Shown: positions 7,299 through 43,078, counted from the stretch's first letter. The stretch: 64,000 bases of DNA from Candidatus Woesearchaeota archaeon (GCA_016177615.1 JACOUX010000006.1:30131-94130), one strand, 5' to 3'. Notes: generated by a model not told the origin, from the sequence alone. Numbers and translations: made by a program.

Positions 7299-7311
7299 TT
7301 TTATTTTTGAC

Positions 7312-11345: not shown

Positions 11346-11933
11346 TTATAGCCTGAAATTCCTGGATTCTATTATTTTTCTCTTGTCCATGCCGAGTGTT
11401 GAGAACAAGCTGGATAAGTCATGGCCTGGCCTTAAGTCATAGGGGTTGCTTGAAAAACACCCAATCAAAGTCTTTACCTTGTATTTTTGGCACAGCCTGA
11501 TGTTTTGGATCATCCTTCCAATAAGCACAGTAGATTGCCTGTCCTTGCCGAACAAAGAGCTGTAGGAAAATCCTATAATAACATTATTTCTCCTTGCAAG
11601 CTCGCAGACAATGTGATTAAGGCCTGATGCTTTTTGGCTGAGGTAGTCTTTTTTTTGGCTTTCTTCAAATCCATAAACCATTTTCACTTTGCCTGTTTCA
11701 ATAAAAAAGCGCGCCATTCCATCGTCTTTTGCCACCAATGGCAGCTGCCGGCTGCTCGCTAGATTCATGCTTTTCCTGTTGATCAGGATGCACCTCTCTA
11801 TGAGGACATTGCTACCTTTACTTGCTTTGAGCCTTTCAGGATTGTAAAGAAAGCACAGCTTTTTGATGCCAAGCCTTTGTGCCATCTGCATGAATTCTTC
11901 TTCGTTATTGTCAGGCATAACAATGTCGGCCAT
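11346..11933 (-). CDS. rnp3: RNase P protein component 3 (Rpp30/Rnp3 family, TIM-barrel)
   Basis: C-terminal half GLNHIVCELARRNNVIIGFS...KYKVKTLIGCFSSNPYDLRPGHDLSSLFSTLGM aligns closely with Pyrococcus Rpp30 ([20 protein letters not shown]...KYKVRRFLTSSA...DVRYPRDLISLGVVIGM). Confidence 0.7.
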   Translation of the reverse strand: MADIVMPDNNEEEFMQMAQRLGIKKLCFLYNPERLKASKGSNVLIERCILINRKSMNLASSRQLPLVAKDDGMARFFIETGKVKMVYGFEESQKKDYLSQKASGLNHIVCELARRNNVIIGFSYSSLFGKDRQSTVLIGRMIQNIRLCQKYKVKTLIGCFSSNPYDLRPGHDLSSLFSTLGMDKRKIIESRNFRL

Positions 11934-12094
11934 TTTATTAAGATTTTTTATTTGAGATTAATAAACTTTGTTTAAGCTTAAAAATAAAAGTATTTATAAA
12001 GAAAGTGGGTTTATAAATAAATATAAATAAAATATGCCAAATAAGCATAAAAAAGACCTTATTTTTTATTTGGGGGTGTTTTAAGGCTTTTTCA

Positions 12095-12121
12095 GCTCAA
12101 ATATATTATTTTAATTGGAGG
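12095..12121 (+). promoter_or_regulatory. Archaeal TATA-like box (aaatatatta, 12099-12108) followed by GGAGG (12117-12121) upstream of the TBP gene
   Basis: AT-rich element ~25-30 bp upstream of ATG 12130; SD-like GGAGG 9 nt upstream of ATG. Confidence 0.35.
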
Positions 12122-12129
12122 AATCTAAA

Positions 12130-12684
12130 ATGGTCAAGAAAGAAACTAAAAGAGATATAAAAGTAGTTAATATTGTTGTTTCTACATCTTTAAAGCACGA
12201 TATACCGCTTGAAAAGATGGCGGCAACCTTAAGCAATACAGAATATAATCCAGAACAGTTTCCTGGCCTTGTAATAAGAATTAAAGAGCCAAAAACGTCT
12301 GCATTGATATTCAGCTCAGGCAAGGTTGTATGTACTGGAGCAAGGTCGATGGACAAGGTTGAAGAGAGCATCAAGAAGATAATCAAGAGTCTTGAGAAGA
12401 TAAATGTCAAGATTACAGTTAAGCCAGAAATAAAAATACAGAATATTGTGGCTTCTGGAAGCGTCGGCATGGACCTGAACCTGAACACATTAGCCATGAA
12501 ACTGGAAAATACTGAATACGAACCTGAGCAGTTTCCTGGCCTTGTTTACAAGCTGACTGCCGCAAAAGCAACATTTTTGCTGTTCAGCAATGGAAAAATT
12601 GTGTGCACAGGCACGAAGAGCGAAAAGGAAGTGCATGCCGCGCTTGACAAGCTGGTAGAAAACCTGAAGAAGGCCAAGGCGTAA
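12130..12684 (+). CDS. tbp: TATA-box binding protein (TBP)
   Basis: Two direct repeats of the TBP fold (VVNIVVSTSL...EQFPGLVIRIKEPKTSALIFSSGKVVCTGARS / IQNIVASGSV...EQFPGLVYKLTAAKATFLLFSNGKIVCTGTKS). The track ORF starts at a TTG (12115); the ATG at 12130 is preferred. Confidence 0.9.
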   Translation: MVKKETKRDIKVVNIVVSTSLKHDIPLEKMAATLSNTEYNPEQFPGLVIRIKEPKTSALIFSSGKVVCTGARSMDKVEESIKKIIKSLEKINVKITVKPEIKIQNIVASGSVGMDLNLNTLAMKLENTEYEPEQFPGLVYKLTAAKATFLLFSNGKIVCTGTKSEKEVHAALDKLVENLKKAKA

Positions 12685-15700: not shown

Positions 15701-16384
15701 ATTGATCTTCCTCCTACCTTAATCAACAGGTTCGACCTCATCTTTCCCATAAAGGACTTGCCTGAAGAGACAAGAGATGAGAAAATGGCAAAGCATATCC
15801 TTACCCTTCACCAAAGCCCTGAGGTAAATGAGCCTGAGGTATCAACAGAGCTCTTAAGAAAATATGTTGCTTATGCGAGGCAGAAAGTGTCCCCAAAGCT
15901 TACTGATGGCGCTCTTGAAGAGATAAAAGATTTCTATTTAAAGATGCGAAAAGGAGGAGGCGAAGGGGGTATAAGGTCTGTTCCTATATCTGCAAGGCAG
16001 CTGGAAGCACTAGTCAGGCTGAGCGAAGCTTCTGCAAAAGCAAGGCTGGACGACAGGGTTACCAGAAAGGATGCAAAAAAAGCCATAGAGCTTCTTGATT
16101 ACTGCCTTATGCAGGTCGGATTTGACAAAGAGACTGGAAAGGTGGATATTGACAGGATAGCCACTGGTGTTGGAGCGTCGCAAAGAAGCCACATAATGGT
16201 TTTAAGGGATATAATAATCGAGCTTGAGTCCAAGCTTGGAAAATCTGTTCCAATGGAAGATGTCATGGCAGAAGCAAAGAGCCGCGGCTTGGATGAGGAT
16301 AAGGTTGAAGAAGCCCTTGAGAGGCTGAAGCGCTCGGGAGATGTTTATGAGCCTAAGAGAGGCCATGTAAGCAAATTGCCTTAA
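12770..16384 (+). CDS. mcm: MCM replicative helicase containing one intein
   Basis: C4 zinc finger CPACGN...CGCG, Walker A GDPGSGKS, Walker B VCVDELDKM, arginine finger SARQLEALVRLSEA, C-terminal wH. Host sequence ...HESLENQ | TISISKANIQATL is interrupted by a 531-aa insertion. Confidence 0.9.
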   Translation: MEINVLEQIKRFQDFIDGNYYKSLLENARKGDRFLIIDFIELSKYDPDLATQLLDAPEETIKAVEKAIEQFDIEGISRFRIRFHNLPQGQHTKIRDIRSKHISRLVYVEGLIRQKSDVRPQVTSAKFECPACGNIINVLQLEGTFKEPARCGCGRKGKFVEIGKELVDAQGIVMEEVSENLEGGEQPKRISVLLTDDLVSPISEKRTAPGSKVGIIGIVKEVPIISRTGAKSTKFDLMIEANYVKPTQDTFYEVMVSDEEEKQILEIANDPRGYEKLINSIAPSIYGYEKIKEALLLQLMGGVRKVRADNVISRGDCHILLVGDPGSGKSALLKRITTFAPKGRYVSGKGISGAGITAAVVRDEFLKGWALEAGAMVLSSDGVVCVDELDKMSNEDRAAMHESLENQSYHYNTEIMLSDGSTFKIGKFVEELIDNNRDEVIFGKNCEILPVNNVELLTTDFEKIFPTKATMVSKHKAPDYFVKITYSNGRSIMVTPEHPVYVFYNGKISETPAEQVKQGLLAPAPRKLPTKSKNVEFIPSGLNHFNNKEIEFPSSLNNGLARLLGYITTEGYAYFSTQNRYAEVGISNTNPFIIDEMSLLFKETFKTTVNINVQFANSRSKAKKDIATVRICSKPFYNYIFSNFRGSANGAKNKYINNSLRCADKEFQLEFLRTAFKGDGFVDSRRFGYSTSSLELAKGYQDLLLQNNIGSRIDTEKRNSTEYYKVAITGTEGAGLFLNNIAEEDDHRIKRLSEFYNASKNKKNERDILPREILIEVNLLLKSFNLSDGYFINNINRGFNAHKDVVLGYIRKIEDKLKECDKAVQLNNPKKLRRLLNIEVNFLARNVNVSAGTIYNIEKKNNSARYHELVRTIKKLGNEKIQFTKSKVNYILKLINSEIRFLYVKKVEKIKNDGMEWVYDVTVEPTRTFISEGLVLHNTISISKANIQATLIARTTVLAAANPKFGRFDPYAIIADQIDLPPTLINRFDLIFPIKDLPEETRDEKMAKHILTLHQSPEVNEPEVSTELLRKYVAYARQKVSPKLTDGALEEIKDFYLKMRKGGGEGGIRSVPISARQLEALVRLSEASAKARLDDRVTRKDAKKAIELLDYCLMQVGFDKETGKVDIDRIATGVGASQRSHIMVLRDIIIELESKLGKSVPMEDVMAEAKSRGLDEDKVEEALERLKRSGDVYEPKRGHVSKLP
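13991..15583 (+). mobile_element. Intein (531 aa) with LAGLIDADG homing-endonuclease domain inside the MCM ATPase domain
   Basis: Insertion between Walker B and sensor 1. It begins with Ser (SYHYNTEIM...) and ends ...GLVLHN followed by +1 Thr. Two LAGLIDADG-like motifs (LARLLGYITTEGYAY and LEFLRTAFKGDGFVD). Confidence 0.8.
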
Positions 16385-18556: not shown

Positions 18557-21500
18557 CTACCCAAACCATCTCCCTAACCCTTCCTGCTTTTCCTTGTCCC
18601 TTCCGAAGACTCCTTCCACTCTATCTTTAGTCAAAAGCAAAGTCTGCTTCAGGTAAGGGGGCAGGTTGTACTTGTCGGACAGGGAAATCGCAGGCTCGAG
18701 ATATTTTATTATTGCCCCCTCTGTAACTGTGAATATGAGCTTGCTTCCGCATTCCAGGCATTTCCCGGCCAAAGGGGGCCTCCTGTATTTTTCAGTGCAC
18801 TTGCTGCACCTGAACTGCTGTTGGGAGAATTTCCTTAAGTTTCCTCTTATGTCCCTCAGCAAATGCTTTTCAATGACCAGCCTTGCAACATCGGCTGCGT
18901 CAACCGCCCTTATCTTGTCTGCAAGGTCCATCTGCCCCTTTAGCTTGTCTTCCATTGAAGGGATTGTCTTGTATGAAGAGCACTTTACTCCCATGTTTAT
19001 GCTGCTGACGGGATGGGTGTAGTAAATTGCAGACGCCTCTTTTGAGCCTAGAATGTTTGCAATCCTTTGTATCTTGACATTGTGCGGCATCTCATAATTC
19101 AAAGCCGCTTCATAAAATTCCAAAGGGTATCTTTTGACAACATCCACATCGAATGCCATGTCATCAACTTCTGTCGGAACCAAAATGGATGTTAAAACTA
19201 ATGGCGCGTCCTGTGTCGCACCTCTTGTGTCTGGAAGAAACTGCTTTGAGAAATTTAGCAATACGTCCATTAGTAATGTTACTGAAGCTTCGTCGCCATC
19301 ACAATCGCGCCTAGTAGCAGCATGAAGCAGCGGATGGGCATAAAATGCCTGTGTTTTTGAAAACCCGATTATTCTTCCTATTATTCCAGCTGATGTGTGC
19401 GGAGCAAGCGCGACTACCAATTCTCCAATAAGGTCTTTTTCGGATTTAAGGTTGTAGAATTTGCCAAGCTTGTACAAAGACCCCAGCAGCTCATCTATAA
19501 ACAGGCTGACTTCGTAAAGAACCTTGTCTGCGCCTTTCTCAGGAGCATCCTCGCATTTGGGTAGTATTATATCCTGAGGCATCAACTCAATGATTTGTTC
19601 CTCATCCTCCAATTGGTTGGAGTTTATATCCTCAGTATACCCAAGCTGCCTGAGTTTCTCTATAGAGGTCCCTATCTCTCTTGGCTTGAAATGTGTTATC
19701 GGCAGTTGCGTCATATCATACCTTGTTGTGCCGTCTTTATTGACTGGTATGCCATATTTTGCCCTCAGTATACCTTTAGCCAAATGCTCGGGAATATGGT
19801 TTTTATTTGATGTCCCTCTAACCCCTTTTACCAGATCTGGATAATGGCTCATGCCTAAGTTAGCCAATATTCTGTTGAAGTAGTGGTTAATGTCAATTTT
19901 TTGCAGTTTATAGGTTGTTGTTTTTCCGTGAATGCATTTTTCATTTCTTATCGTGCCGCAAACCTTGCACAGGTGCATCTGTACGGACTTGGAATTGCAT
20001 TTCTCGCAGACAGGCATGATTGTTGGCTCCTTGCAGCTTTCGCAGAAATAAATCGGAAATTCTGCTGTTACGCCCCCAATTCCGAGGGCGCTTTGAAAAG
20101 ACCTTAGCTTGCCCCCTTCTTTGCCTACTGGAAAGAGCATATGAGGATCACCTTCCATTTTCCTGACTTTTCCTTTTTCGGGCCTGCCCATTCTTGCACC
20201 TATGAATGTGCCTGATTTGTCTCTTATCTTAATCTCAGATGACATATTTATAATTTCAATTGTGTTTTCGTTTATAACGCTTGCATATTTTTCATAAAAT
20301 TCTTCATTATCCAGGCTTAGAAGGGCATAGAATACCTCTGCTTCATTTTTCTCCAAAATAGTGAATTCATTATTCACATAGATATGCGGTGCACCTATAG
20401 ATTCCAGTACTTTCTTGGCTTTCTCGTTTTTTGGAAGAATTATTTTGCTTAGCTTGCTGTTTTCAAACTCCATCTTTGCATGCTTAAACCATGACAAAAT
20501 CTCAAGCAGCGATTCTCTTGAAATAATTTTCCAGTGGTAGGTATGAAATGGGTGGAGGGGGACACTTAAAATTCTGCTTAACGCTGCCGACTCGTATCCG
20601 TTGGGCTTTGAAATAAAATAATCCTGAATGAACGACTTTAGGTTTTCAACTGGAATTCCGCTCAGTTCAGATAATTTGCCAAAGTCATTGTTGAATAACT
20701 CCTTTATCGCCTGCTCTGCTTCAAGCGCCCACCATTCCTCACAATAGCCTGCAGGCACCAACTGATGCGCCCTGTTAAAAAAATCACCGTAATTTATCAA
20801 TATATCTCCCAAAAATATTATTTCGCTGATTTGGCTGGCTGACTGCTTTGCGATTTGTTCGCTGTGCACATATATAACACTCCCATCATTTAATTTGACT
20901 ATTGGACCCTCTAAGCAATCACATACTGTTATCGCTGTTGCTTTCCCGGGCCTTTCCACTTTCAGCTGGGTGCCTATCCCAAGGTATTTGTTTAGCACAT
21001 ACATAGTCGCAGGATGTATTGATGTAGCAGAATATCCTGACGTTCTGCATCTGCCGTACCTTAATCTGAACCCTCCAGTTGCAGAAGGGTGCCCCAAAAC
21101 CGGGCGTCCTGCAACCAGATCCTGAATGTATGTGTAAATCGGGGTTATTCCTTTCTTTGATGCCTTTTCTTTCGCTTTTATTTCCTTTTGCAGATGCACA
21201 AATTCCTGCAGAAAAGACCAGTGGCCAAGCTCAAACTCGTCTCCCCATTTTTTAAGCTGCGACCATACTTTGGGTGCCTTTTGCGCAATGCACTCCCCCA
21301 AAACAAGCGCGGGCCCGCTTCTTATCCTATTTGTAGCAATCCTATCTAGGTCTTTGTAGTTAGATACCTCAATTTCTTCTGAAGGGTCTCCATCTATTTG
21401 GACAGGGAGGTTGCTTACCAAAAAGGATATTTCTTTTTCGCTTGGCAGGTATTGAAGGTTTGTAACCCTTTCGTGATAATCATACAGTTCTGTTACCATC

Positions 21501-22060
21501 CTCCTGATTTCCTGCTCTGACGGGTCATAAGCTTCAAACCCCATTTTTTTCCTGATATAGTCCGCTATAACTGCGCTGACTGCCCCAGCTGTCCCGCCAG
21601 CGCTTCGTATTGGGCCGGAGTACATCAGCGAGAAATAATCTTTGCCGTCCCTGCGCTTGTTGATTTTTAGTTCCACAAACCCCTCAAGCGGCGATGCCAC
21701 AACACCCAATGTCAAATATGCGAGACCAATCCTTATGCCAGTCTCCATAGCAATCTTCTGTGAATCGAATTTGCAGAATCTTTCCTGAGACACTTCCAGC
21801 GAAATTGAAAGTGCAACCCTCCAGTCCGATTTTCCGTAAATGGCTTCCAATTCTTTGATTCTTTCCGGAATCCCACTATTCATGAGTTGGGGCACAACAA
21901 CACTTACAATACCTTCCACTCTTTCTGCCATATTTTTTGCGAGAGGTGCGCATACTATCGGTTCAGGATCATACCCTTTGGACCTTGCTTCAGAGGCTAT
22001 GGCGTAGCATTTCTCAATTTCTTCCGCCATCTTCTTGCTGGATTTTTCGTTGGTAATCAT
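18557..22060 (-). CDS. polC: DNA polymerase II (PolD) large subunit DP2
   Basis: 1167 aa; DP2-typical Cys clusters (CESCKEPTIMPVCEKCNSK...CKVCG; C-terminal CSKCTEKYRRPPLAGKCLECGS); global similarity to archaeal DP2. Confidence 0.9.
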   Translation of the reverse strand: MITNEKSSKKMAEEIEKCYAIASEARSKGYDPEPIVCAPLAKNMAERVEGIVSVVVPQLMNSGIPERIKELEAIYGKSDWRVALSISLEVSQERFCKFDSQKIAMETGIRIGLAYLTLGVVASPLEGFVELKINKRRDGKDYFSLMYSGPIRSAGGTAGAVSAVIADYIRKKMGFEAYDPSEQEIRRMVTELYDYHERVTNLQYLPSEKEISFLVSNLPVQIDGDPSEEIEVSNYKDLDRIATNRIRSGPALVLGECIAQKAPKVWSQLKKWGDEFELGHWSFLQEFVHLQKEIKAKEKASKKGITPIYTYIQDLVAGRPVLGHPSATGGFRLRYGRCRTSGYSATSIHPATMYVLNKYLGIGTQLKVERPGKATAITVCDCLEGPIVKLNDGSVIYVHSEQIAKQSASQISEIIFLGDILINYGDFFNRAHQLVPAGYCEEWWALEAEQAIKELFNNDFGKLSELSGIPVENLKSFIQDYFISKPNGYESAALSRILSVPLHPFHTYHWKIISRESLLEILSWFKHAKMEFENSKLSKIILPKNEKAKKVLESIGAPHIYVNNEFTILEKNEAEVFYALLSLDNEEFYEKYASVINENTIEIINMSSEIKIRDKSGTFIGARMGRPEKGKVRKMEGDPHMLFPVGKEGGKLRSFQSALGIGGVTAEFPIYFCESCKEPTIMPVCEKCNSKSVQMHLCKVCGTIRNEKCIHGKTTTYKLQKIDINHYFNRILANLGMSHYPDLVKGVRGTSNKNHIPEHLAKGILRAKYGIPVNKDGTTRYDMTQLPITHFKPREIGTSIEKLRQLGYTEDINSNQLEDEEQIIELMPQDIILPKCEDAPEKGADKVLYEVSLFIDELLGSLYKLGKFYNLKSEKDLIGELVVALAPHTSAGIIGRIIGFSKTQAFYAHPLLHAATRRDCDGDEASVTLLMDVLLNFSKQFLPDTRGATQDAPLVLTSILVPTEVDDMAFDVDVVKRYPLEFYEAALNYEMPHNVKIQRIANILGSKEASAIYYTHPVSSINMGVKCSSYKTIPSMEDKLKGQMDLADKIRAVDAADVARLVIEKHLLRDIRGNLRKFSQQQFRCSKCTEKYRRPPLAGKCLECGSKLIFTVTEGAIIKYLEPAISLSDKYNLPPYLKQTLLLTKDRVEGVFGRDKEKQEGLGRWFG

Positions 22061-22066
22061 TCTGGT

Positions 22067-23551
22067 TTATTGCCCAAACTTAAGGATTTTTATGTCTCTT
22101 GTGCCAAGGTTCACTATTGGAACTCTGCTCGGCTCTGGATTGTGGCCAACCTTTTCCTGAAAAGTAGTTTTTCCTTGCCAACAGCTGCCGCAGATTAGTG
22201 TAGTGTTCCTGTAATTGGAAGTTGATGATTTGTGTATATGGCCGCTGAGAAAAAAGTCAGGGACTTTCTCTATCACTAAATTGTCTTTTTTTGTGTCTGG
22301 GATGTATAAAGATGATAAGTGAGAAGGGGCCAAATGCCTTCTTTTTAGAAGGAACTTCATGATGAGGTCAGGCCTGTTATAACCACCTAGACTTCTCAAT
22401 GAGTCTACATTTGCCACAAAATAATCAAAAGAATAGCCATGATACATCAATACATCAAAGCCCGAAAAGTTACTTGTTGAGTTTATGTTTATCATTGAGG
22501 GGTTTGATACCATTATAACATTGCTCATTTCGTGCAGTGGCTTTGCAAAGTCTTTGGATAATTGTGGCTGCGGCTCTGCTATTCTCAGAGCATCATGGTT
22601 TCCAGGGCAGATAATCAATGGTATTTGGTGGGGGATCTGCCTTAAAAGACCTGCGCATTCTTCGTATTGCTCATAAATGTCTTTTGTAATGAGCTCTTTC
22701 TCTTGACCGGGGTACACCCCGCACCCATCAACTAAGTCTCCTGCAATAAAGATGTATTGGATTTTATTCGATATGCTTCTTTGCTGTTCGTTTCCCATCT
22801 TCCCGTTTATCCATTTCAAAAACCTTTCAAAATCTTCAGGCAAAAATTTTGAAGATCCAACGTGCAAGTCTGAGAGGAATATAGCATAAGATTCCTCCTC
22901 GTGCTTCTTGAGCTCCTTGCTCGCTGGTATGTCTGGCCACAGTATGTTATTGGCAAAAATAAAATTCTCTATGTTTACACCAACCACTCCTACAACCTCG
23001 TCCAGCACAATGTCTTTGGCCTCGTTGAAAAGCGCCGGCTTGTTTTTGTTTACTAGGACCTTTCTTTGACCTGTTGGGTCTTCCAAAAGCAAGAGGAGAT
23101 TTCCATTTTTTGTTGTTTGCTTGTAGCTGACCATTCCAATCACAGAAAGGGGCTCTTTTTCCCTTTTGTTTGGAATTTTCCCTATTGAAACCGTATTTTG
23201 CATCTCTTGCCTTTGCTTCAATATTTTTTCGATCGCTTTGTACCTGTTGTTGAAGTGGTCCACAAAATCCTGGATGTCCCTTTTCTTTGGCTCTTCTTTG
23301 TAAGAATAAACAATTTTTATTTCCCCTTGCTTTGGGGCTTCTGCCATTTCTGGCGATTTTGTGCATGTTAATTCTGTTAAACTGAAGTCCGCTACCGGAT
23401 CGTTAAGCTGTTTCGTCCTGATAACCTCAAAAATTCTGGATATCTTGTCATAGTCATTAATTCCCCTCAAAAAGTCAGGGCTTATGAGAATTCCTTTCTT
23501 TAAGCACGCTTCTATTACTTCCCGCTTTTTGTCTATAAGTTCCTGCTGCAT
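22067..23551 (-). CDS. polB: DNA polymerase II (PolD) small subunit DP1 (calcineurin-like phosphoesterase)
   Basis: Phosphoesterase motifs (IFLSDLHVGS, FIAGDLVDG, GNHD, GHIH). Start trimmed to the Met that avoids overlap with cdc6 (track ORF extends to 23647). Confidence 0.85.
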   Translation of the reverse strand: MQQELIDKKREVIEACLKKGILISPDFLRGINDYDKISRIFEVIRTKQLNDPVADFSLTELTCTKSPEMAEAPKQGEIKIVYSYKEEPKKRDIQDFVDHFNNRYKAIEKILKQRQEMQNTVSIGKIPNKREKEPLSVIGMVSYKQTTKNGNLLLLLEDPTGQRKVLVNKNKPALFNEAKDIVLDEVVGVVGVNIENFIFANNILWPDIPASKELKKHEEESYAIFLSDLHVGSSKFLPEDFERFLKWINGKMGNEQQRSISNKIQYIFIAGDLVDGCGVYPGQEKELITKDIYEQYEECAGLLRQIPHQIPLIICPGNHDALRIAEPQPQLSKDFAKPLHEMSNVIMVSNPSMININSTSNFSGFDVLMYHGYSFDYFVANVDSLRSLGGYNRPDLIMKFLLKRRHLAPSHLSSLYIPDTKKDNLVIEKVPDFFLSGHIHKSSTSNYRNTTLICGSCWQGKTTFQEKVGHNPEPSRVPIVNLGTRDIKILKFGQ

Positions 23552-23558
23552 GTCCCAA

Positions 23559-24764
23559 TTAAATATGAATGCTGTCTTCAAGAATGCTCTTGGTTTTTTG
23601 GAGTGTTGCTTCTGGGATTTCCAGGGATATCTCTCTTGTTCTGCCATACCTCCCTTTGGAAATCACTTTGGCATTTACTACCCCCATCATATCAAACTCG
23701 GATATAATATCTGAAACCCTTCTTTGTGTCAATGTGCTTATGTTTATCTTGCTGCACAGGGATTTGTAAACCCCATATACCTCCCCGGTGAACAGCGATT
23801 CCCTGCCGCGCTGCAAGGAGATTATGGAATAAAGCACAACCTGATATTGTTTTGGCTGAGTTGTTGCTATATCCATTATCCTGTCTCGATCTATCTTTTC
23901 CTCTGCTTCATCTATGTCTTCCAGAGTTATTGTTTTTGTGTTTTTCCTGTCTGCAACTTCCCCTGCAACCCTTAGAAGCTCCATGGCGCGCCTTGCATCC
24001 CCGTGGTCGCGAGCTGCGTAAGCCGCGCATTTCTCAATTACCCCCTGCCCCAAAACCCCTTTATTAAATGCGAATTCCGCTCTTTGCTTTAAAATGGATT
24101 GAATTTGGAGCGCGTTGTATGGAGGAAAAACAATTTCTTCTTCTGATAATGATGATCTGACCCTAGGATCGAGCCCATCAACAAACATTATGTCATTAGA
24201 TATCCCAATCAAAGAGATTTGTGATGTTGTGTCTTCTTCACTAATCCGTGTTAGGTTGTAAAGCGCATTGTCTCCCATCTTGTTAATGAGTTGGTCTATC
24301 TCATCGAGTATTATCACGTAGTTTTGATTTTGCTTATTTAATGCCTTAAAGAATGATCTGTAAACTTCTTCTGTAGGCAAACCTGTTGGGGGGATTTCCT
24401 TGCCGAGTTCCCTCGCAAGCTGCGCTATGAGCCTGTATTCTGTATCGGCGCTTCTCTTTAGCTTGCAATTGACATAAATTACCTTCAAAGGCAACTTCTC
24501 TTTTTCTGCTACGCTAGCCAGTTTTTGAGTGGTGTGTTTTACCGTAAGGGTTTTTCCTGTGCCTGTTTTGCCATAGACAAAGGTGTTTGAGGTTTTGTCC
24601 CCTTTTAAAGATGGTGCAAGGACATTGGCTACTTGTTTTATCTGGATTTCCCTATGTAAGACCGTTTCTGGAATATAGGATGCTTGAAGTGCCTTTTTAT
24701 CAGAAAAAACGCTCTTTTTCCTTAAAAAATCTTCAAAGAAGGTTTCTGTGTCCTTTTCTACCAT
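23559..24764 (-). CDS. cdc6: Orc1/Cdc6 replication initiator
   Basis: AAA+ Walker A GKTGTGKT, Walker B ILDEID, C-terminal wH; lies directly next to the ORB-containing AT-rich region. Confidence 0.9.
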   Translation of the reverse strand: MVEKDTETFFEDFLRKKSVFSDKKALQASYIPETVLHREIQIKQVANVLAPSLKGDKTSNTFVYGKTGTGKTLTVKHTTQKLASVAEKEKLPLKVIYVNCKLKRSADTEYRLIAQLARELGKEIPPTGLPTEEVYRSFFKALNKQNQNYVIILDEIDQLINKMGDNALYNLTRISEEDTTSQISLIGISNDIMFVDGLDPRVRSSLSEEEIVFPPYNALQIQSILKQRAEFAFNKGVLGQGVIEKCAAYAARDHGDARRAMELLRVAGEVADRKNTKTITLEDIDEAEEKIDRDRIMDIATTQPKQYQVVLYSIISLQRGRESLFTGEVYGVYKSLCSKINISTLTQRRVSDIISEFDMMGVVNAKVISKGRYGRTREISLEIPEATLQKTKSILEDSIHI

Positions 24765-35243: not shown

Positions 35244-35282
35244 AACATTTAAATATGTTTATGTAAATTTCTTCACCTTGAA

Positions 35283-36449
35283 ATGGAAAAAAAAGCCCAG
35301 AGCGGGATGAACGCTGCCATACTAGTGGCAATCATCGCAGGGCTTATCGTCCTTTACATAGTTTTTCTGCCGACTTCCGAGCGCGAGCGCCTGGTTTTGG
35401 ATAAGGGTGAAGAAGATGGAGCTGAAACCCAATCCAATCTTTTGCTTGACGTGTTCCCAGGGACGCTCAGCATTTCAAAAGGACTTGAGAACGAAAAGCC
35501 AATCCCAAACCTATTCCTGATTGAGACAACGAATGCAATGGAATTTGAGACAATCAATCCTTTTATAATAAGGAACGGGTGGTTTGACAAGAAATCAAAG
35601 TCTTTTGACTTTTCACTTGATGATCCTTCCAATGTTGATAATGTAATCCTTTCATTCACGACAAAAAAGAGGCAAGGCATACTTACTATACGGCTAAATA
35701 ATGAAGTGGTATTCGAAAATGAGTTTGCAAGCGACATAGTTGCCCCTGTAAGGCTTAGCAAAAGGCTCCTGGACAAGGCCAACACGCTGCAGTTCAGCGT
35801 TTCATCAGTAGGGGCAAGGTTCTGGGCAACCAATGAATATGAATTCGAAAATGCGAAGATAATAGGCGACATAACCGATACAAGCAGGCAGGAAAGCTCT
35901 AATGTGTTTGTCATCAGCGATTCAGAATACCAAAATATGGAAAAGGCAGAATTGAAGTTTAACCCGTACTGCGGCAATGTACGCGACTTGGGGGCTTTGA
36001 ACATACTTATAAACAACAAGAAATTAGTGTCTTCAGTTCCCAAGTGCGACGACCCTTACAACCAGCCAATTCCAAAATCCGTGCTTAATTCAGGAGAAAA
36101 CAACATAGTATTCAAGACAGACAAGGGAAGCTACGGCATCGAGCAGATAAGAGTGACATTGGATTTCAAAGGAGCTGCTGTCAAGACTTATTATTTTGAG
36201 ATAAAGACAGATGATTTCCAGAGCATCAGGAGCAATTCGAGGAAAGTCATGCTCATGGTCAAGTTTGCAGACGGGAAAACCCTTAAGAGGGCAAAGCTTG
36301 ATGTCAACAGCAGGATAGAAACAATAGAAACAGACAAAATGCTGTTTTCAAAGGACATAACAGGCAAAATTTCAGAAGGAAACAACTTTGTAAGGCTCGA
36401 GCCGCTTGAAGACATAGAAGTCGTAGAGCTGAAAGTTGAGCTGGCATAA
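35283..36449 (+). CDS. N-terminally anchored extracellular protein with pilin-like (class III signal-peptide-like) N-terminus
   Basis: MEKKAQSGMNAAILVAIIAGLIVLYIVFL resembles archaeal prepilin signals (KxQxS...hydrophobic), though the usual +5 Glu is absent; the rest is beta-rich. Confidence 0.45.
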   Translation: MEKKAQSGMNAAILVAIIAGLIVLYIVFLPTSERERLVLDKGEEDGAETQSNLLLDVFPGTLSISKGLENEKPIPNLFLIETTNAMEFETINPFIIRNGWFDKKSKSFDFSLDDPSNVDNVILSFTTKKRQGILTIRLNNEVVFENEFASDIVAPVRLSKRLLDKANTLQFSVSSVGARFWATNEYEFENAKIIGDITDTSRQESSNVFVISDSEYQNMEKAELKFNPYCGNVRDLGALNILINNKKLVSSVPKCDDPYNQPIPKSVLNSGENNIVFKTDKGSYGIEQIRVTLDFKGAAVKTYYFEIKTDDFQSIRSNSRKVMLMVKFADGKTLKRAKLDVNSRIETIETDKMLFSKDITGKISEGNNFVRLEPLEDIEVVELKVELA

Positions 36450-36510
36450 TTCATTTCCCTTTCAATTGCTTAAAAACAAGAGGTGGCTAGGAAGAGTTCT
36501 CTATTAAGGT

Positions 36511-39500
36511 ATGACAGACGATAAATTGCCGTTTAAGGTGGTGGATAAAAGAAGAAGAGAGCCAGAGGAAGGTGGCAAGCAGTTGTTTAAGGTTACAGAT
36601 AGGAGAAGTCTAGAGGCACAGAATGCGGCAGCAGAAATGCAAAGAAGAGCAACAACAACTGCTCCGAAGAATGATAATCCGCCTTTCAAAGTTATAGACA
36701 GGAGAAACGAAGAAAGCCAGAGAATAGCTGAAGAAATGCGAAGGGAAAGGGAGCAACAGGCTGCCCAAGCCAAAAGCGCGGCAAGCGAAGCTGCCAGAGG
36801 AAGGCGAATGAATTTAAGGGCTTCTTGGCAGGCTATGAGAAATAACATGCTAATAGCAAAACAGAACCGTGCTTCTGAAAAGCAAGCTGCCAAGAAACAA
36901 GCCCAAAAGACTCCTGAGCAGGAGCCAGAAGATCAGGGACAGGCTAAAGGCAGGGGAAGCGGACTAATAAATCCCATTCAAATCAATATGCCAGGGGGTG
37001 GTTTGCTGAAGTTTCTTTTGAGAATATTAATATTTTTTGCATTGGTGGTAGCCTTTGTGATTTTTTTTGGCCAAGGAATAACGATCAATACATCATTTAT
37101 AATAAAATCAGTTATTGCATTGATGTTTTTTGGGTTTGTCCTTGCAGGTTTATTTCTCAATAAAGAGGGGGATATCGCTCCTTTTTTTATTTCTGTTGCC
37201 TTGATTATTACATTCATAGACATGTTGCCAGAGTTTTTTTCTGGATATGGAAGCTATTACACCGGATTTGCATTTGATTCACAGGGCCTTTTAAACACAA
37301 ACTGGTCGGCAGTTATTGCTTCAAGCCTTGTCTTTTTGCTTTTGCTCTTGGGGATGTTTAAAACTATCCTAAAAAGAAGCATAGTGGGTTTTCTTATCAT
37401 AGCCTCACTTATACTTATAATCTTCAATAAATACATGAATTATTACACAACAACAATCAGCAAACCTTACCTAAACTACTACATTGCTGGAATAGTGGTT
37501 GCTTTTTTAGTCATATACTTGCTGATTAAGCATAAGATTGAGGGCTCCGAGCTTGAAGAAAAAATAACTTACGTCTTCATGGCTTTGGTTTTTTCCTTCT
37601 TTTGGGTCAATATTGGATGGAAAGATGATACAAAGGCATTAATCCATATGATCTACATTTTGATTTATGGTTTTGTTTATATAAGGTCATATGCGGAAAG
37701 CCCTAGCGAATGGCATATACTAATCCCCGTTTTTATTATACTTGATTTCTTTGGTTATGGCATTATCTATAATTATGTTTACACAGCCGGCAATCTTGAT
37801 AAAGTTCTGCATATTCCGATCTTGCTTTTCCTGGTAAACCTCTATTGCCTAAAAAGGTCAAAGAGCCCATATCCTACATTTGTTATGATGTTTATAGCAG
37901 TTATTATCTTATTTTCAGGCGTTAATCTAATTGTATTCGCAGCCGGCGAAGGTTCATATACCTTTCAAAAGCAGGCTATTCAGGGTGTAGAGGGATTTTG
38001 GGAAAGGATTGCTGGAGGCATAGAAAGATTCACCCAGCAGGGGCTTGATTATGCAACAGGAGGATATTACAGCAGCACTGTTGAGCAGAACCAGTATGAA
38101 AGCCTTGGGGTTTACTTTTCAAATGTAAGGGGCGCAGACCCAAAATTCTACACAGACCAGCCAGTAACAATCTGGGGAACCATCAAAAGCAAGACGTATA
38201 AGGATCCTGTCTTGGTAAGCTTCAACTGCCAACTGGAGGGGCCCCAGAAGCAGACACCCATTGATCCAACCAGCCACTATCCTAACCAAGAGTTTCCTGT
38301 ATTTACATTTGACCAGATTGATACAGAATGCACATTTGACCCAAAAATCACAGGAGAGCTGCCTGCAGGCGCCAACAAGGCAAAATTAAGCGCAGATTAC
38401 AATTTCGGCACAGACGCTTATATCAAAACATATTTTATTGACAGAAGCAGGCTGATAGCAAGCAGCAGGGAAGACATAGATATATTGGCTCAATATGGAA
38501 TTCAGGATAATGACCCTATTGCAGTTTTTACAAACGGGCCTGTGGCAATCGGCATAGAAAGAGTTCCTTTGGTTCCTGTAGGCGCAACTGATTATCCAGT
38601 CAAGCCAGCCATAGGAATTAGCCTGAGCAATAGAGGACAAATTACAGATAAAAATGAGAACGTCTATTCAAGATGGGAAGGAAGAATAAACAAAGTGACA
38701 GAGCTTGTTTTATTGACTCCGCCGGGAGTAACTCTTGCGAAAGATGCTAACAATAATTATATATGCAGCACGCCTTTTAAGGATTACACAGCATTAAATT
38801 GTATCGCCTCTTGTAAAGACAATGTTGGTGATCCATGCAAGTATTTATGCTCCAAGATTTACACTTTCAATGCACTTACAGACTGTACTACAGAGTGCAC
38901 CAATAGCCTTATGAACTGTGAAGGCGAATGTGGAAGTATTTTCACAGGCGACGGCCTGCAGGGAAAATATAATGGATACCAGGCAGACATAGAGTTTCTT
39001 AATAAAAACAAACTGAACGAAAATATAGAAAAGAGCCTAAGGGTGCAATGCCGCTATAACGCAGATGAAAGCGTTCTGGACAAGACACCCATAACAACAA
39101 GGTATTTCAGGGTAAGGGCAAGATACAATTATTATCTTGAGAACAAGTTTAATGTCCCAATTGAAAAGAGGATAGAGGAAAGCTTATTGCCGCAGCCGGC
39201 TCCGGCAGAAACTTCCACGCCAGGATTCAGAACAGACTTACCCGAAGGTGTTTATAAAAATGCTTATTTTACAGCCGGGCAAAGAGAAGCAGATTATAGT
39301 GGTATTGTGTTTGAAGTTGCTAAGCAATATAATGTAGATTATCTTTTTGTAAAAGCAATAATACAACAAGAAAGTAGTTGGAATCCAAACGCAGTTGGAG
39401 ATGGAGGGAATTCATTTGGCCTTATGCAAGTTTCTAGAACCAACGCGCAGAAATTAGGATGCGGAGCCAATTTTGAAACTGACCCAAGAGCAAATATAGA

Positions 39501-39768
39501 ATGTGGCATAAAGTTAATAAGAGAATTAATGGATGTCCAACAAAAAAATAGCTGGAAACCCGGGTTAAGGAACATTGCTGGAGGCTACAACTGTGGTGAG
39601 CAGGCCATGAGGTACATCACTAGTCCAACCGGACAAATATCATATTGGGAAGGCCAAGGTAATTGTCCACACCGCGATCAAAAGGGGAACATCGTTTCCT
39701 ATACAAGAAATTATGTAGACATCATATGGAATAATTATCAAACCTTAAAAAACAAAATCCCGCAGTAG
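36511..39768 (+). CDS. Large polytopic membrane protein with extracellular Cys-rich region and C-terminal lytic transglycosylase (SLT/GH23) domain
   Basis: N-terminal cytoplasmic triple repeat (LPFKVVDKRRRE / QLFKVTDRRSLE / PPFKVIDRRNEE), ~12 TM helices (aa ~170-480), a Cys-cluster region (CIASCKDNVGDPCKYLCSK...CTTECTNSLMNCEGECGS), and a C-terminal domain VAKQYNVDYLFVKAIIQQESSWNPNAVGDGGNSFGLMQV that fits the SLT catalytic motif (E-S...GLMQ). Confidence 0.7.
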   Translation: MTDDKLPFKVVDKRRREPEEGGKQLFKVTDRRSLEAQNAAAEMQRRATTTAPKNDNPPFKVIDRRNEESQRIAEEMRREREQQAAQAKSAASEAARGRRMNLRASWQAMRNNMLIAKQNRASEKQAAKKQAQKTPEQEPEDQGQAKGRGSGLINPIQINMPGGGLLKFLLRILIFFALVVAFVIFFGQGITINTSFIIKSVIALMFFGFVLAGLFLNKEGDIAPFFISVALIITFIDMLPEFFSGYGSYYTGFAFDSQGLLNTNWSAVIASSLVFLLLLLGMFKTILKRSIVGFLIIASLILIIFNKYMNYYTTTISKPYLNYYIAGIVVAFLVIYLLIKHKIEGSELEEKITYVFMALVFSFFWVNIGWKDDTKALIHMIYILIYGFVYIRSYAESPSEWHILIPVFIILDFFGYGIIYNYVYTAGNLDKVLHIPILLFLVNLYCLKRSKSPYPTFVMMFIAVIILFSGVNLIVFAAGEGSYTFQKQAIQGVEGFWERIAGGIERFTQQGLDYATGGYYSSTVEQNQYESLGVYFSNVRGADPKFYTDQPVTIWGTIKSKTYKDPVLVSFNCQLEGPQKQTPIDPTSHYPNQEFPVFTFDQIDTECTFDPKITGELPAGANKAKLSADYNFGTDAYIKTYFIDRSRLIASSREDIDILAQYGIQDNDPIAVFTNGPVAIGIERVPLVPVGATDYPVKPAIGISLSNRGQITDKNENVYSRWEGRINKVTELVLLTPPGVTLAKDANNNYICSTPFKDYTALNCIASCKDNVGDPCKYLCSKIYTFNALTDCTTECTNSLMNCEGECGSIFTGDGLQGKYNGYQADIEFLNKNKLNENIEKSLRVQCRYNADESVLDKTPITTRYFRVRARYNYYLENKFNVPIEKRIEESLLPQPAPAETSTPGFRTDLPEGVYKNAYFTAGQREADYSGIVFEVAKQYNVDYLFVKAIIQQESSWNPNAVGDGGNSFGLMQVSRTNAQKLGCGANFETDPRANIECGIKLIRELMDVQQKNSWKPGLRNIAGGYNCGEQAMRYITSPTGQISYWEGQGNCPHRDQKGNIVSYTRNYVDIIWNNYQTLKNKIPQ

Positions 39769-39777
39769 GCAGGAGCC

Positions 39778-40824
39778 ATGAAAAATATGGAACAAAGGTT
39801 TTTAGCATCGATCACATGTTTATTAATATTCCTCTCAGCCTGCACTCTAACCTCATCCGGCGCATCAGAGCAAAATTTCCGCACAGGAAATACCGGCCTT
39901 GCTTTGGAATTATTGAAAAACACCCCTCCTCCAAGGATGTTTGAAGGCGACACATTTCCTGTTGTTATAAGGGTGGCAAACACAGGAGCCTTTGATATTC
40001 CTCCGGAAGGGGCAGTCCTGTCGCTTGGAGTGGAAAAGGACTATACAAAGGAAGTCAGCCTTTTGTACAAACAAGATCATCTTACGCCGGATACTGCAAA
40101 TGATTTTTCAGGATTTTTTGGAATAAAAGGAAAGAGCATGTTGAGCCCAAGAGGGGAAGAAGAAGTCTTTAGCTATAATGTGATAGCAGGAAAACTGGAT
40201 CCCCAAAGCGAGCAGCACATCTCAACAATCACAGCATCTGTATGCTATCCTTATGAGACAATTCTTGACACGACAATATGCATAGACACAGACGTCAATA
40301 GCCTAAGGCCCGGTAAAAAGGTATGCAGCAACCAGGACATTATATTCGGGAATGGCCAGGGAGCGCCTGTTGCAATAACAAAGATAGAGCCAAAAATGCT
40401 TCCGATACAGGCATTCGGCAATGTAGAGTCTTCTGACAAGATAAAGCCGCAGTTCCTGATTTATGTCGAGGATTTTGGAGGAGGAGTTGTGATAAAAAAG
40501 GAATCACTTAAAAAATCATGCATAGGGGAACAGGACAGACCATTTGACCATAATGATTTTGGAATAGTATATGTTAAGGTAGAACTTTCAGGAAAAGAGC
40601 TCCACTGCCAGCTGGAAAAGAAGGAGCGCGACCCCGGGCCTGGGCACATCAAGCTTCAGGACAAGAAAGACATAATAAGATGCAATACAGAGAATAATAA
40701 AGAATACTTGACTGTCATAGACAGGAGCCAGGATTCCTATTTTGCCCCGCTAAGAATCACATTGGAATACGGATACACTAAATCCATATCCGCAAGCTAC
40801 ACAATACAAAAGCCAGTCAGCTGA
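39778..40824 (+). CDS. Lipoprotein, paralog A of a tandem triplet
   Basis: Signal peptide with lipobox FLSAC. Shared motifs NTGAFDIPPEG...CYPYETILDTTICIDTDVNS...KKVCSNQDIIFGNGQGAPVAITKIE. Confidence 0.6.
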   Translation: MKNMEQRFLASITCLLIFLSACTLTSSGASEQNFRTGNTGLALELLKNTPPPRMFEGDTFPVVIRVANTGAFDIPPEGAVLSLGVEKDYTKEVSLLYKQDHLTPDTANDFSGFFGIKGKSMLSPRGEEEVFSYNVIAGKLDPQSEQHISTITASVCYPYETILDTTICIDTDVNSLRPGKKVCSNQDIIFGNGQGAPVAITKIEPKMLPIQAFGNVESSDKIKPQFLIYVEDFGGGVVIKKESLKKSCIGEQDRPFDHNDFGIVYVKVELSGKELHCQLEKKERDPGPGHIKLQDKKDIIRCNTENNKEYLTVIDRSQDSYFAPLRITLEYGYTKSISASYTIQKPVS

Positions 40825-40890
40825 GTTATTCACTAAACCTTTAATCCTTATCAAAAGTTTTAAATATCATATCCCCAATTTTGCATAATT

Positions 40891-41970
40891 ATGGCTAAGC
40901 CGCATAAATTCTTGATAGCTGGGTTTTTATTATTTTTATTGTTGTTTATTTCATATGGCTGCGGCAGCAAGTCCAGCGGGAAAAAATCCCTTGAAGAAAT
41001 AAGGTCAGGCACAACTGGAGTAAATTTGGCTTTCCTTCCGAATAACCCCCCGTCAACAATACATGCAGAGCAGGCTTCAAACACATTTGATGTTGCCATT
41101 GAAGTGCAGAATACCGGCGCATTTCCGCAGCCTGAAGATCTAATGGATAAGAAGCTCGAAGGCAGGATTTATTTAAGCGGCTTTGATACAAGCATAATCA
41201 GCTTTAATACAATTGATCTGAAAGGGCAGTCTTCACAGAAATTTTATGCTTTTGAGAATCATGAGCCAGAACTGCACGGCAAAAGCAACATCAATCCAAA
41301 CGGAGGCTCTGATATTGCCTCATTCAAGGGAACCATAGACATGGGCAAGCTAAATGTAGAGAGTTATGAGCCGTCAATTTTGGCAACAGCATGCTATAAA
41401 TACTACACAATAGCAGGCCCTTCTGTATGCATTGATCCTGACCCTTATTCCACAATGAAGCAAAAAAAAGTTTGCGAAATCCGAAGCACGACTTTGACAG
41501 GCCAGGGAGCACCAATATCAGTAATACAAGTCGATGAAGACGCCACTGCAGACAAAACACAGTTCAAGATAACCATTAGAAATGCAGGCAATGGCGATGT
41601 TTTCTGGCCCGGCCAAAAAGGTGAAGAAGAGCCGCAAACATCAAACGCCATTGGAAAGTGCAACCCATCTGCCGACAATAAGAACAAGGTTGGAAGAGAT
41701 GATATTGGCAGGGTGCATCTTGACAAGGCCATTATAGGAGACTTGCAATTGGTATGCTGGCCTTTTGCACAGGAGAATGTAAGGTCAGAGAACGGAGGCA
41801 TAATAAGGCTTCTTGAAGGCGAAGGCTCAATATTCTGCGAGCTTAAAAAGGATAAATACAAGGGAGGAAACACAGCTTATACCACTCCATTAAGGATTGA
41901 GCTAAGCTACTTTTACAGGACATCCGCAGAGCGAAAGGTGCTGATAAAGAAAGAAATGCCAAGCCCATAA
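40891..41970 (+). CDS. Lipoprotein, paralog B
   Basis: Lipobox ISYGC. Motifs NTGAFPQPED...CYKYYTIAGPSVCIDPDPYS...KKVCEIRSTTLTGQGAPISVIQVD are collinear with paralog A. Confidence 0.6.
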   Translation: MAKPHKFLIAGFLLFLLLFISYGCGSKSSGKKSLEEIRSGTTGVNLAFLPNNPPSTIHAEQASNTFDVAIEVQNTGAFPQPEDLMDKKLEGRIYLSGFDTSIISFNTIDLKGQSSQKFYAFENHEPELHGKSNINPNGGSDIASFKGTIDMGKLNVESYEPSILATACYKYYTIAGPSVCIDPDPYSTMKQKKVCEIRSTTLTGQGAPISVIQVDEDATADKTQFKITIRNAGNGDVFWPGQKGEEEPQTSNAIGKCNPSADNKNKVGRDDIGRVHLDKAIIGDLQLVCWPFAQENVRSENGGIIRLLEGEGSIFCELKKDKYKGGNTAYTTPLRIELSYFYRTSAERKVLIKKEMPSP

Positions 41971-42046
41971 AACAAAAACAGAAAACTTTATATAATCGAA
42001 AAAAAATTTCAATTTGATTGAAATTTTTTATAATTAAAGAGGCAAA

Positions 42047-43078
42047 ATGAATAAGAGGTTTTATGCGATTGCATTGCTTGTAATTCTTGTTCTTCTAATG
42101 GCCGCATGCAAGAAAAGCGGAGCATCAACTGGTAGCGCCCCAAGGACGCCGTTTATAGGCGGAACAGCAGGGGTGACAATCAACTTTGAAAAGGATTCAC
42201 CGCCTCCGGAAGTGACAGATGACGAGTCTTTCGCATTTAACGCGATTGTAAGGCTTAAAAATGACGGGGAGCACACTGTAAACAAAAATGACATGAGAAT
42301 AAACATGGTCGGCTTTGACCCAGCTGATTTTGGCAAGGACTTTATTGACATGAAGGATGTGCAGCCTCAGGACGATTTGCTGGCCAAAAGAAGAGACTCT
42401 GAAGGCAACCTGATAGAGGGAACAACCACCTTCGCAACATTTCCAAGAAGCGGAGACTCATTTATCCCAAAAAAATTCAGCGGCAACCTTGAGTTCACAT
42501 TCAGGGCAGACACATGCTATAACTACATGACCGAGGCTAACACAAAGCTATGTATTTTAAGGGACATGATTAATATCAGGGATGACAGCATCTGCAGGCC
42601 AAGCGGAACAGGCACCTCAGGCAGGCCAATATACAGCTCGTCAGGTCCTGTGCAAATCACAAATTTCAGGCAAAGCGTGATAGGAAGAGACAAAATATCT
42701 TTCAGCTTTGACATTGTGTTAAGCGGCAATGTGGACATTTTCTGGAGCAGGGACAAAAGAACGCCGTCAAGCGGGTTTGATGCAGCATGCCCAAGAGACC
42801 CAAGGCTTAGAAGGGAAATCGAAAATAATGTGGGAATAGAAATCACAGAAATAGCAGGAGACCCAATAATAACCGATTTAAGGTGCGGCGGCCTTGAAAG
42901 CGACTCAGTCGGAACAGTCAAGCTGGTCAACGGCAAGAGAACCATAACCTGCACAGCTGATTTGCTGCAGGACAGGCTTGACTTGGAAAAGGCAGTCGGC
43001 ATATTGTTAACCTATAATGTCTTGGACAATAAAGAAACAAAAGTTCTGATAAAGCACTTGGCTTCTACAAACCCGTAA
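42047..43078 (+). CDS. Lipoprotein, paralog C (more divergent)
   Basis: Lipobox LMAAC. CYNYMTEANTKLCILRDMIN...SGTGTSGRPIYSSSGPVQITNF is collinear with A and B. Confidence 0.55.
   Translation: MNKRFYAIALLVILVLLMAACKKSGASTGSAPRTPFIGGTAGVTINFEKDSPPPEVTDDESFAFNAIVRLKNDGEHTVNKNDMRINMVGFDPADFGKDFIDMKDVQPQDDLLAKRRDSEGNLIEGTTTFATFPRSGDSFIPKKFSGNLEFTFRADTCYNYMTEANTKLCILRDMINIRDDSICRPSGTGTSGRPIYSSSGPVQITNFRQSVIGRDKISFSFDIVLSGNVDIFWSRDKRTPSSGFDAACPRDPRLRREIENNVGIEITEIAGDPIITDLRCGGLESDSVGTVKLVNGKRTITCTADLLQDRLDLEKAVGILLTYNVLDNKETKVLIKHLASTNP

Follow-up and report, generated by a model that had tools for sequence, protein, structure and literature searches.

Organisation of the locus

We analysed a 64,000-nucleotide stretch of DNA from a Candidatus Woesearchaeota archaeon (GCA_016177615.1 JACOUX010000006.1:30131-94130), referred to throughout as the window, and within it an open reading frame (ORF) for a 1085-amino-acid (aa) membrane protein that ends in a predicted SLT/GH23 lytic transglycosylase domain. 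This gene is the second of five on the same strand, separated by gaps of 9-76 nucleotides (nt), which together we call the cassette. Positions are counted from the first letter of the window.

35249..35256, plus strand: TATA-like box TTTAAATA, about 27 nt upstream of cassette gene 1 and within the 39-nt divergent gap to pelota (read from the sequence)
35283..36449, plus strand: cassette gene 1, a 388-aa signal-anchored, possibly pilin-like protein, with orthologues beside the main gene in nearly every related locus
36511..39768, plus strand: cassette gene 2, the 1085-aa polytopic membrane protein with an ectodomain and a C-terminal SLT domain (ORF call, ATG start)
39778..40824, plus strand: cassette gene 3, predicted lipoprotein paralogue A, 348 aa, lipobox LSAC (BLASTP, hhalign, N-termini)
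40891..41970, plus strand: cassette gene 4, predicted lipoprotein paralogue B, 359 aa, SYGC, two beta-sandwich domains
42047..43078, plus strand: cassette gene 5, predicted lipoprotein paralogue C, 343 aa, lipobox MAAC (BLASTP, hhalign, N-termini)

The source organism is a Woesearchaeota (DPANN) archaeon. Archaeal markers in the window include MCM with an intein, both subunits of DNA polymerase D (PolD), Orc1/Cdc6, pelota and the small subunit of replication factor C (RFC). An identical 1085-aa protein with the same cassette neighbours occurs in four independent SRA assemblies; samples SRR12113420/22/24/31 contain this population. The NCBI entry for the protein reads 'transglycosylase SLT domain-containing protein [Candidatus Woesearchaeota archaeon]'. 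TTTAAATA may act as a promoter element.

The C-terminal enzyme domain

By every SLT/GH23 sequence criterion that we applied, the C-terminal domain is a family-1 lytic transglycosylase. Its principal features are as follows.

39310..39612, plus strand: SLT/GH23 lytic transglycosylase domain, aa 934-1034 (Pfam PF01464)
39370..39372, plus strand: codon of the predicted catalytic Glu954, in the E-S motif QQESSW (MltC alignment; codon checked)
39418..39429, plus strand: GLMQ motif, motif II, aa 970-973 (family SLT alignment)

The full-length protein matches PF01464 with E 7.4e-17 and 61.4 bits, against a curated cut-off of 21.3, and the tail alone does so with E 4.8e-18 and 65.3 bits. The NCBIfam models MltC, MltF and IagB also match this stretch (IagB at E 4.7e-6), and the best sequence relatives in the PDB are E. 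coli MltC (E 6e-6), a phage tape-measure protein (9b45, E 4e-5), g-type lysozymes and MltF. Alignment to the solved MltC, MltF and g-type lysozyme suggests a lysozyme-like, alpha-helical fold. Glu954-Ser955 aligns with the ES of E. coli MltC entry 4c5f, and the same position is Gln in a second MltC entry, 4cfo; we take this position to be the catalytic Glu217 of MltC and 4cfo to be its E217Q mutant. Motif III reads GYNCG at aa 1025-1029 and AYNG(W/L)G in orthologues. Assuming that its consensus is A-Y-N-x-G, the first residue of GYNCG departs from it. With E-S, GLMQ and GYNCG all present beside the PF01464 match, the C-terminal block is as well formed as the original prediction had described it.

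These motifs are also kept by the relatives. Glu-Ser/Thr/Asn stands upstream of GxMQ in 107 of 118 family SLT domains by pattern, and in most of the others by eye; within GLMQ itself the G is found in 119/119 and the M and Q in 114/119. Loss of the catalytic Glu or of GLMQ, the weak points named beforehand, was not seen on careful alignment: both are intact here and conserved in nearly all of the family. Retention of the Glu and of GxMQ nearly throughout the family is the pattern expected under selection for catalysis.

Architecture and topology of the membrane protein

Upstream of the enzyme, the protein comprises a basic N-terminal region, a block of membrane helices, a large ectodomain and a flexible-looking tether.

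36511..36999, plus strand: N-terminal region, predicted cytoplasmic, aa 1-163, low complexity, 34 Lys+Arg (sequence; hydropathy)
36532..36552, plus strand: FKVVDKR, repeat copy 1, aa 8-14 (sequence)
36586..36606, plus strand: FKVTDRR, repeat copy 2, aa 26-32 (sequence)
36685..36705, plus strand: FKVIDRR, repeat copy 3, aa 59-65 (sequence)
37000..37917, plus strand: about 11 transmembrane (TM) helices, aa 164-469 (hydropathy and AlphaFold2 secondary structure)
38011..39165, plus strand: conserved ectodomain, aa 501-885, beta-sandwich domains after the invariant juxtamembrane motif LDYATGGYY..VE.N..E.LGVY (alignments)
38791..38937, plus strand: insertion within the ectodomain, aa 761-809, a helical hairpin bearing four CX3C motifs (AlphaFold2 model, sequence)
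39166..39309, plus strand: Pro/Thr-rich tether from ectodomain to enzyme, aa 886-933 (sequence)

About 12 TM helices had been proposed; hydropathy and the secondary structure of the AlphaFold2 (AF2) model both give about 11. No signal peptide was found on the 1085-aa protein. With a basic, cytoplasmic N-terminus and an odd number of helices, the ectodomain and the enzyme would lie outside the cell, and we favour such an N-in, C-out topology on these features together with the absence of a signal peptide and the richness of the C-terminal part in Cys. The proposed extracellular, disulfide-rich domain is likewise supported computationally by 16 Cys beyond aa 476, among them those of the hairpin, where CX3C motifs at C764/768, C776/780, C792/796 and C803/807 lie on two predicted antiparallel helices. 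This arrangement resembles the twin-CX3C disulfide staple of the small Tim proteins. The ectodomain is modelled with moderate confidence, at a predicted local distance difference test (pLDDT) score of 70-88; in the TM block the score falls to 40-55, and the fold there is not interpretable.

Two identities were considered for the TM block. A GT-C glycosyltransferase is argued against by minimal orthologues with only 4-5 helices, and presenilin matches in the PDB profile search (E 0.2) are noise.

All three of the basic N-terminal repeats that had been described are present in the predicted cytoplasmic region, the first two with 70% DNA identity over 37 nt. The FKVxDRR repeat is restricted to one lineage, being found in 1 of 156 family representatives, and none was found in the other ORFs of the related loci that were searched. 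No Pfam family matches the N-terminal 165 aa, a suspected likeness to a motif in DUF1844 was not supported, and a literature search on the repeat returned nothing useful. It is a guess that these cytoplasmic repeats form a lineage-specific short linear motif that binds a cytoplasmic partner.

A conserved five-gene cassette

A first homologue search gave six relatives at 30-39% identity, and an exhaustive profile search extended this to 526 cluster representatives at E<1e-30. Scanning one genome per species recovered 54 loci. In nearly all of these species-level genomes with a long enough contig, the order of genes is pelota (minus strand), the 388-aa protein, the ectodomain protein, the three lipoproteins and the RFC small subunit (minus strand). 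The same order nearly throughout the 54 loci indicates that the cassette is old and has been inherited vertically within the order. Loci with informative titles are Woesearchaeota, Nanoarchaeota or Nanoarchaeia, with the exception of one 'Aenigmatarchaeota' contig, one 'archaeon' and 24 titled 'uncultured Methanosarcinales'. These last records (L004, L005, L009-L011 and others, 24 of the 54 loci) nonetheless carry the Woesearchaeota cassette between pelota and RFC, and the Methanosarcinales label on them has the look of a placeholder or a mistake.

Downstream of the main gene, proteins A, B and C are genuine paralogues of one another (BLASTP E 1e-24 and 1e-11; hhalign probability 100%). Their N-termini, each a predicted signal peptide that ends in a lipobox-type Cys, suggest that they are lipoproteins: LSAC (A) and MAAC (C) fit the lipobox [LVI][ASTVI][GAS]-Cys, from which SYGC (B) deviates. 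A relaxed lipobox pattern of our own is found in 105 of 124 lipoprotein orthologues, and the others that were displayed mostly have a similar x-G-C. The proposed linkage of the transglycosylase gene to three lipoprotein paralogues can accordingly be upheld, on the protein comparisons and the lipobox-type N-termini alike.

The 388-aa protein begins with a highly conserved KKAQSG-MNAAILVAIIAGLIVLYIVFLP-SERE, a basic stretch followed by a hydrophobic helix. This N-terminal helix (NAAILVAIIAGLIILYIVFLP.SERE; window 35283-35400) is near-invariant, though distant orthologues are only about 31-45% identical overall, which suggests a packing or recognition role for this membrane helix. The conserved [KR][KR][GA]Q...hydrophobic helix is accompanied by several polar residues after the putative cleavage site, and does not strictly match the FlaFind-type class III signal pattern. 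Of the window ORFs scanned, those of the cassette included, none encodes a prepilin peptidase or an assembly ATPase.

Neither Pfam nor profile searches of the PDB yielded a relative for the ectodomain core, the lipoproteins or the 388-aa protein. The AF2 model of lipoprotein B is confident (pLDDT 89.7). Structural matches to it and to the ectodomain include macroglobulin (MG), transglutaminase barrels, CARDB, RbmA and HAP2/fusexin domain III, and amount to a generic immunoglobulin (Ig)/MG-like beta-sandwich. The most apt description of the cassette core is a group of beta-sandwich surface proteins anchored to the membrane.

The ectodomain protein is the variable member of the cassette, ranging from 488 to 1253 aa among orthologues. 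Minimal orthologues have 4-5 helices and an ectodomain of about 380 aa, with nothing beyond it and without the hairpin; the window's subclade has 8-11 helices, the CX3C insertion, which is specific to it, and a C-terminal tail. Two distant orthologues, in L030 (3010-6339) and L042 (9545-12883), begin with MR.KKL.KKGQ and extend 350-400 aa beyond the SLT domain, ending in Cys-rich repeats; L042 is the closed chromosome OY970338.1. The protein upstream of the main gene is enlarged in both loci, to 559 aa in L042; the 695-aa ORF of L030 overlaps pelota and is probably over-extended. In L005 the RFC small-subunit ORF adjoining the cassette (9520-12387, minus strand) encodes 955 aa, against about 320 aa elsewhere, and may carry an intein.

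Interchangeable hydrolase tails

Pfam was run on the post-ectodomain tails of 50 orthologues. The fusion that was to be sought in relatives does recur there, with an SLT domain on the shared scaffold in 30 of the 50. Fn3 domains occur in five tails. In one orthologue (L015, 9806-12940) a GH73 glucosaminidase domain, at E about 1e-17 to 1e-18, replaces SLT, and another (L047, 1413-2783) carries an M23 peptidase domain (E 3e-21, with recognisable HxxxD and HxH motifs), preceded by a stretch resembling SLT in which the catalytic Glu is apparently missing. No hydrolase domain was recognised in the remaining tails.

A tree of the ectodomains alone places the GH73-bearing L015 deep inside an SLT clade and the SLT-less L049 among SLT bearers. 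This placement implies that the hydrolase is a swappable accessory on a conserved scaffold. SLT, GH73 and M23 are unrelated folds that share only murein as their substrate, which argues for real peptidoglycan, rather than another glycan, as the target. Such interchange, read from the domain content of the tails, is the strongest argument in our analysis and points to murein as the substrate. It also disfavours the alternative, raised originally, that the enzyme processes a glycan surface layer.

Avoidance of N-glycosylation sequons

Across the 1951 extracytoplasmic residues of the window's five cassette proteins (35283-43078), about 17 N-x-S/T sequons would be expected and none is present; in the 388-aa protein there are 0 against 4 expected. 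Counts across the related loci (cassette genes in L001-L057) were as follows.

Lipoproteins (n=128): 4 sequons observed, 283 expected, ratio 0.01
Post-ectodomain tails: 15 observed, 104 expected, ratio 0.14
388-aa protein, related loci: 50 observed, 186 expected, ratio 0.27
Ectodomain core: 62 observed, 140 expected, ratio 0.44
N-terminal/TM part of the ectodomain protein: 59 observed, 66 expected, ratio 0.90
Cytoplasmic-type ORFs, same loci: 463 observed, 452 expected, ratio 1.03

Control patterns in the lipoproteins (the reversed motif, D-x-S/T, Q-x-S/T and N-P-S/T) are all near 1. The depletion implies strong selection against N-glycosylation on the extracytoplasmic parts of the cassette. 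Since such selection makes sense only where a protein is exposed to oligosaccharyltransferase, the ectodomain and the SLT tail are predicted to lie outside the cell, and sequon depletion would thus constitute independent evidence on topology. The outside location that had been anticipated for the SLT domain is in this way favoured twice, by the N-in/C-out features and by the scarcity of sequons in ectodomain and tail. That scarcity may also be relevant to the way in which these cells construct or employ their surface.

Other features of the window

Elsewhere in the window, the MCM helicase gene (12770-16384, plus strand) is split by an intein with a LAGLIDADG homing endonuclease, and a replication gene cluster (18557-24764, minus strand) holds the PolD large subunit, the PolD small subunit and Orc1/Cdc6 side by side. 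A replication origin may lie near this cluster. At the left end, a giant ORF of at least 2448 aa (3-7346, minus strand) runs past the end of the window, and its Pfam matches are solely Ig-like (Big_13, Big_3_3). Two further ORFs come after it (7312-8580 and 8544-11075, both minus strand), neither with a Pfam match. Sequons at this locus are mildly depleted (18 observed against 34 expected), and the three ORFs are probably a second surface-protein locus.

Interpretation and alternative explanations

We think it probable, though some way from certain, that the 1085-aa protein serves as the integral membrane component of a surface cassette of five genes, and that its enzyme cuts bacterial murein met by the archaeon. 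In the cassette, this polytopic anchor with its beta-sandwich ectodomain would be joined by a signal-anchored protein and by the three lipoprotein paralogues, themselves of beta-sandwich type, and these five proteins probably form or share a surface structure held by helices, lipids and the signal anchor. Beyond some 400 residues of beta-sandwich scaffold, the membrane subunit would present the lytic transglycosylase on its Pro/Thr-rich tether. When it meets a bacterium or wall debris, the enzyme would cleave the N-acetylmuramic acid-N-acetylglucosamine (MurNAc-GlcNAc) strands of bacterial murein. In this way a bacterial partner or prey would have its sacculus breached where the two cells touch, or wall fragments would be set free. 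Direct support for this account comes from the identity of the domain, its intact motifs, the conservation of the cassette, the swapping of hydrolases and the sequence evidence for an outside location; a role in host contact is what we infer from it.

Several points weigh against this account. The cassette core has no recognisable function and gives generic beta-sandwich matches only, and because of this, to speak of a contact apparatus is to argue from composition and conservation. The count of about 11 helices comes from crude methods. Of the 50 orthologues, just one has GH73 and just one has M23, and many orthologues bear no hydrolase at all, which implies that the primary role of the cassette is independent of murein cutting. 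The original idea of a membrane-embedded device for cleaving murein or other glycans is modified to this extent: the GH73 and M23 variants at the same scaffold position favour murein as the substrate, whereas the protein would be a surface-cassette subunit from which the hydrolase is often absent, and not primarily an enzyme.

The same enzyme evidence would serve a scavenger equally well, the tethered domain digesting free murein debris or dead cells for amino sugars and peptides with no specific bacterial host. Consistent with this, PMC9723730 and PMC11537232 describe DPANN genomes as recycling cellular polymers and holding muramoyl-tetrapeptide carboxypeptidases. Neither an adhesin nor a pore former can be recognised in the cassette. 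For bulk degradation, however, an enzyme present in one copy and held to its owner's membrane on a conserved structural scaffold would be a poor design, and the cassette has no linked genes for uptake or for later catabolic steps. We judge scavenging unlikely while taking it seriously. Much less weight can be given to a repurposed glycosidase acting on chitin, on the cell's own surface glycans or on the envelope of a host archaeon. Chitin-active GH23 members exist, and the PDB matches include g-type lysozymes, which are GH23. Known cultivated DPANN are also described as having archaeal hosts (PMC8204110). Against this stand the replacement by GH73 and the addition of M23 at the same position, the latter cutting peptide cross-links and not glycans, and the avoidance of N-glycosylation sites by the cassette proteins, which are hence not obvious glycan substrates.

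Would the archaeon instead remodel a wall of its own? An autolysin acting on a murein-like or pseudomurein-like wall, after the manner of bacterial membrane-bound lytic transglycosylases, would suit both the Mlt-like pairing of a membrane anchor with SLT and the vertical inheritance of the cassette in a housekeeping neighbourhood. An essential wall remodeller should, however, be retained, and the hydrolase is patchy, with SLT in 30/50 and several close relatives lacking it. The window ORFs that were scanned include no gene for murein synthesis. Archaea are not known to make murein, and the beta-1,3 bonds of pseudomurein are not cut by lysozyme-type enzymes. Murein transglycosylases are described in PMC8204110 as normally absent in Archaea, and taken together these points make an autolysin still less credible than a repurposed glycosidase. 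Least probable of all, in our view, is a catalytically weak or dead domain that would bind murein as an adhesin and hold the archaeon onto bacterial walls. Castelle et al. (PMC8204110) do suggest 'attachment to bacterial cell walls' as a role that these proteins might have, and the SLT-like stretch of L047 that apparently lacks its Glu would fit such a function; in the window's protein, by contrast, Glu954-Ser, GLMQ and GYNCG are all intact, and almost the whole family retains the Glu.

Returning to a subunit that cuts bacterial murein, a broader version of this account can be put forward more tentatively. It is possible, if doubtful, that the cassette is a previously undescribed, order-wide surface apparatus of Woesearchaeota, either a contact or feeding structure or a core envelope complex, whose membrane subunit serves as a platform for interchangeable anti-murein 'warheads' (SLT, GH73, M23) in lineages living on bacteria, with its exposed parts kept free of N-glycans. 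If this were true, the presence and type of warhead would predict whether an uncultured lineage has a bacterial or an archaeal partner. More generally, what had been an isolated domain match is now a defined genetic object, a conserved surface cassette in which one subunit gains, loses and swaps peptidoglycan hydrolases. This provides several handles: lineages expected to associate with bacteria, proteins to localise or pull down, and a short soluble domain for assay. The conserved cassette, the swappable hydrolases and the purge of sequons appear to us most worth following.

Relation to known systems

The existence of murein-type transglycosylases in these archaea is already published, and the headline of our analysis is in that respect not new. 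Such enzymes were reportedly noted as early as Rinke 2013 and Castelle 2015. It was published murein-cutting enzymes that drove the idea that Woesearchaeota-type archaea parasitise bacteria. Castelle et al. 2021 (PMC8204110) describe, as fam00969, 'murein-like lytic transglycosylase' proteins of large size from both Woesearchaeota and Pacearchaeota; for DPANN more broadly, Vigneron et al. 2022 (PMC9723730) report GH23 proteins and infer a role towards bacterial walls; and SLT/GH23 in Woese- and Pacearchaeota, with the idea of bacterial hosts, also appears in PMC10936187 and PMC11537232. The surprise originally expressed at an SLT domain in an archaeon was therefore overstated, since both the domain and the bacterial-host idea are to be found in PMC8204110, PMC9723730 and PMC10936187; the domain itself is real.

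The protein studied here shares with the fam00969 and Vigneron GH23 proteins, as far as the passages describing them go, the organisms, the domain, the proposed role against bacterial walls and the form of a large extracellular SLT protein. Those passages give the domain and the protein size; in this comparison by description, a polytopic anchor was not found there. Nor do the portions of the published accounts devoted to DPANN SLT proteins mention a polytopic anchor fused to SLT, a cassette of five genes, an interchange of SLT, GH73 and M23 or an avoidance of sequons, and no example of a cultivated Woesearchaeota-type organism was found in the corresponding parts of the DPANN literature. A further likeness is to the archaeal peptidoglycan hydrolases that kill bacteria (PLoS Biol 2025, PMC12352652), which, as the relevant text has it, are likewise archaeal murein hydrolases used against bacteria. 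That text cites Woesearchaeota transglycosylases as a further lead from another study and mentions neither GH23 nor SLT.

Among bacterial enzymes, the domain is like the family-1 lytic transglycosylases E. coli MltC, MltF and EmtA, and Slt70, in its PF01464 match and its E-S, GLMQ and AYNxG-type motifs. As in the Mlt enzymes, it is tethered to a membrane, with the enzyme predicted here to stand on the outer face. Unlike them, it belongs to an archaeon and would act on the wall of another cell, and its anchor consists of about 11 TM helices and a 400-aa beta-sandwich ectodomain rather than a lipobox or an ABC-type binding domain. It can also be compared with IagB/EtgA of type III secretion systems, VirB1 of type IV secretion systems, FlgJ of flagella and the tape-measure or tail lysins of phages, in all of which murein is opened locally by a small SLT module that is tied, genetically or physically, to a surface structure of several proteins. 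With phage lysins it would further share the circumstance that the wall to be breached belongs to a different organism. There is no homology to any other component of these machines, and the SLT domain is here fused to a membrane protein of an uncharacterised cassette. In how it works, nevertheless, it would come closest to the transglycosylases that are dedicated to secretion systems, flagella and phage tails.

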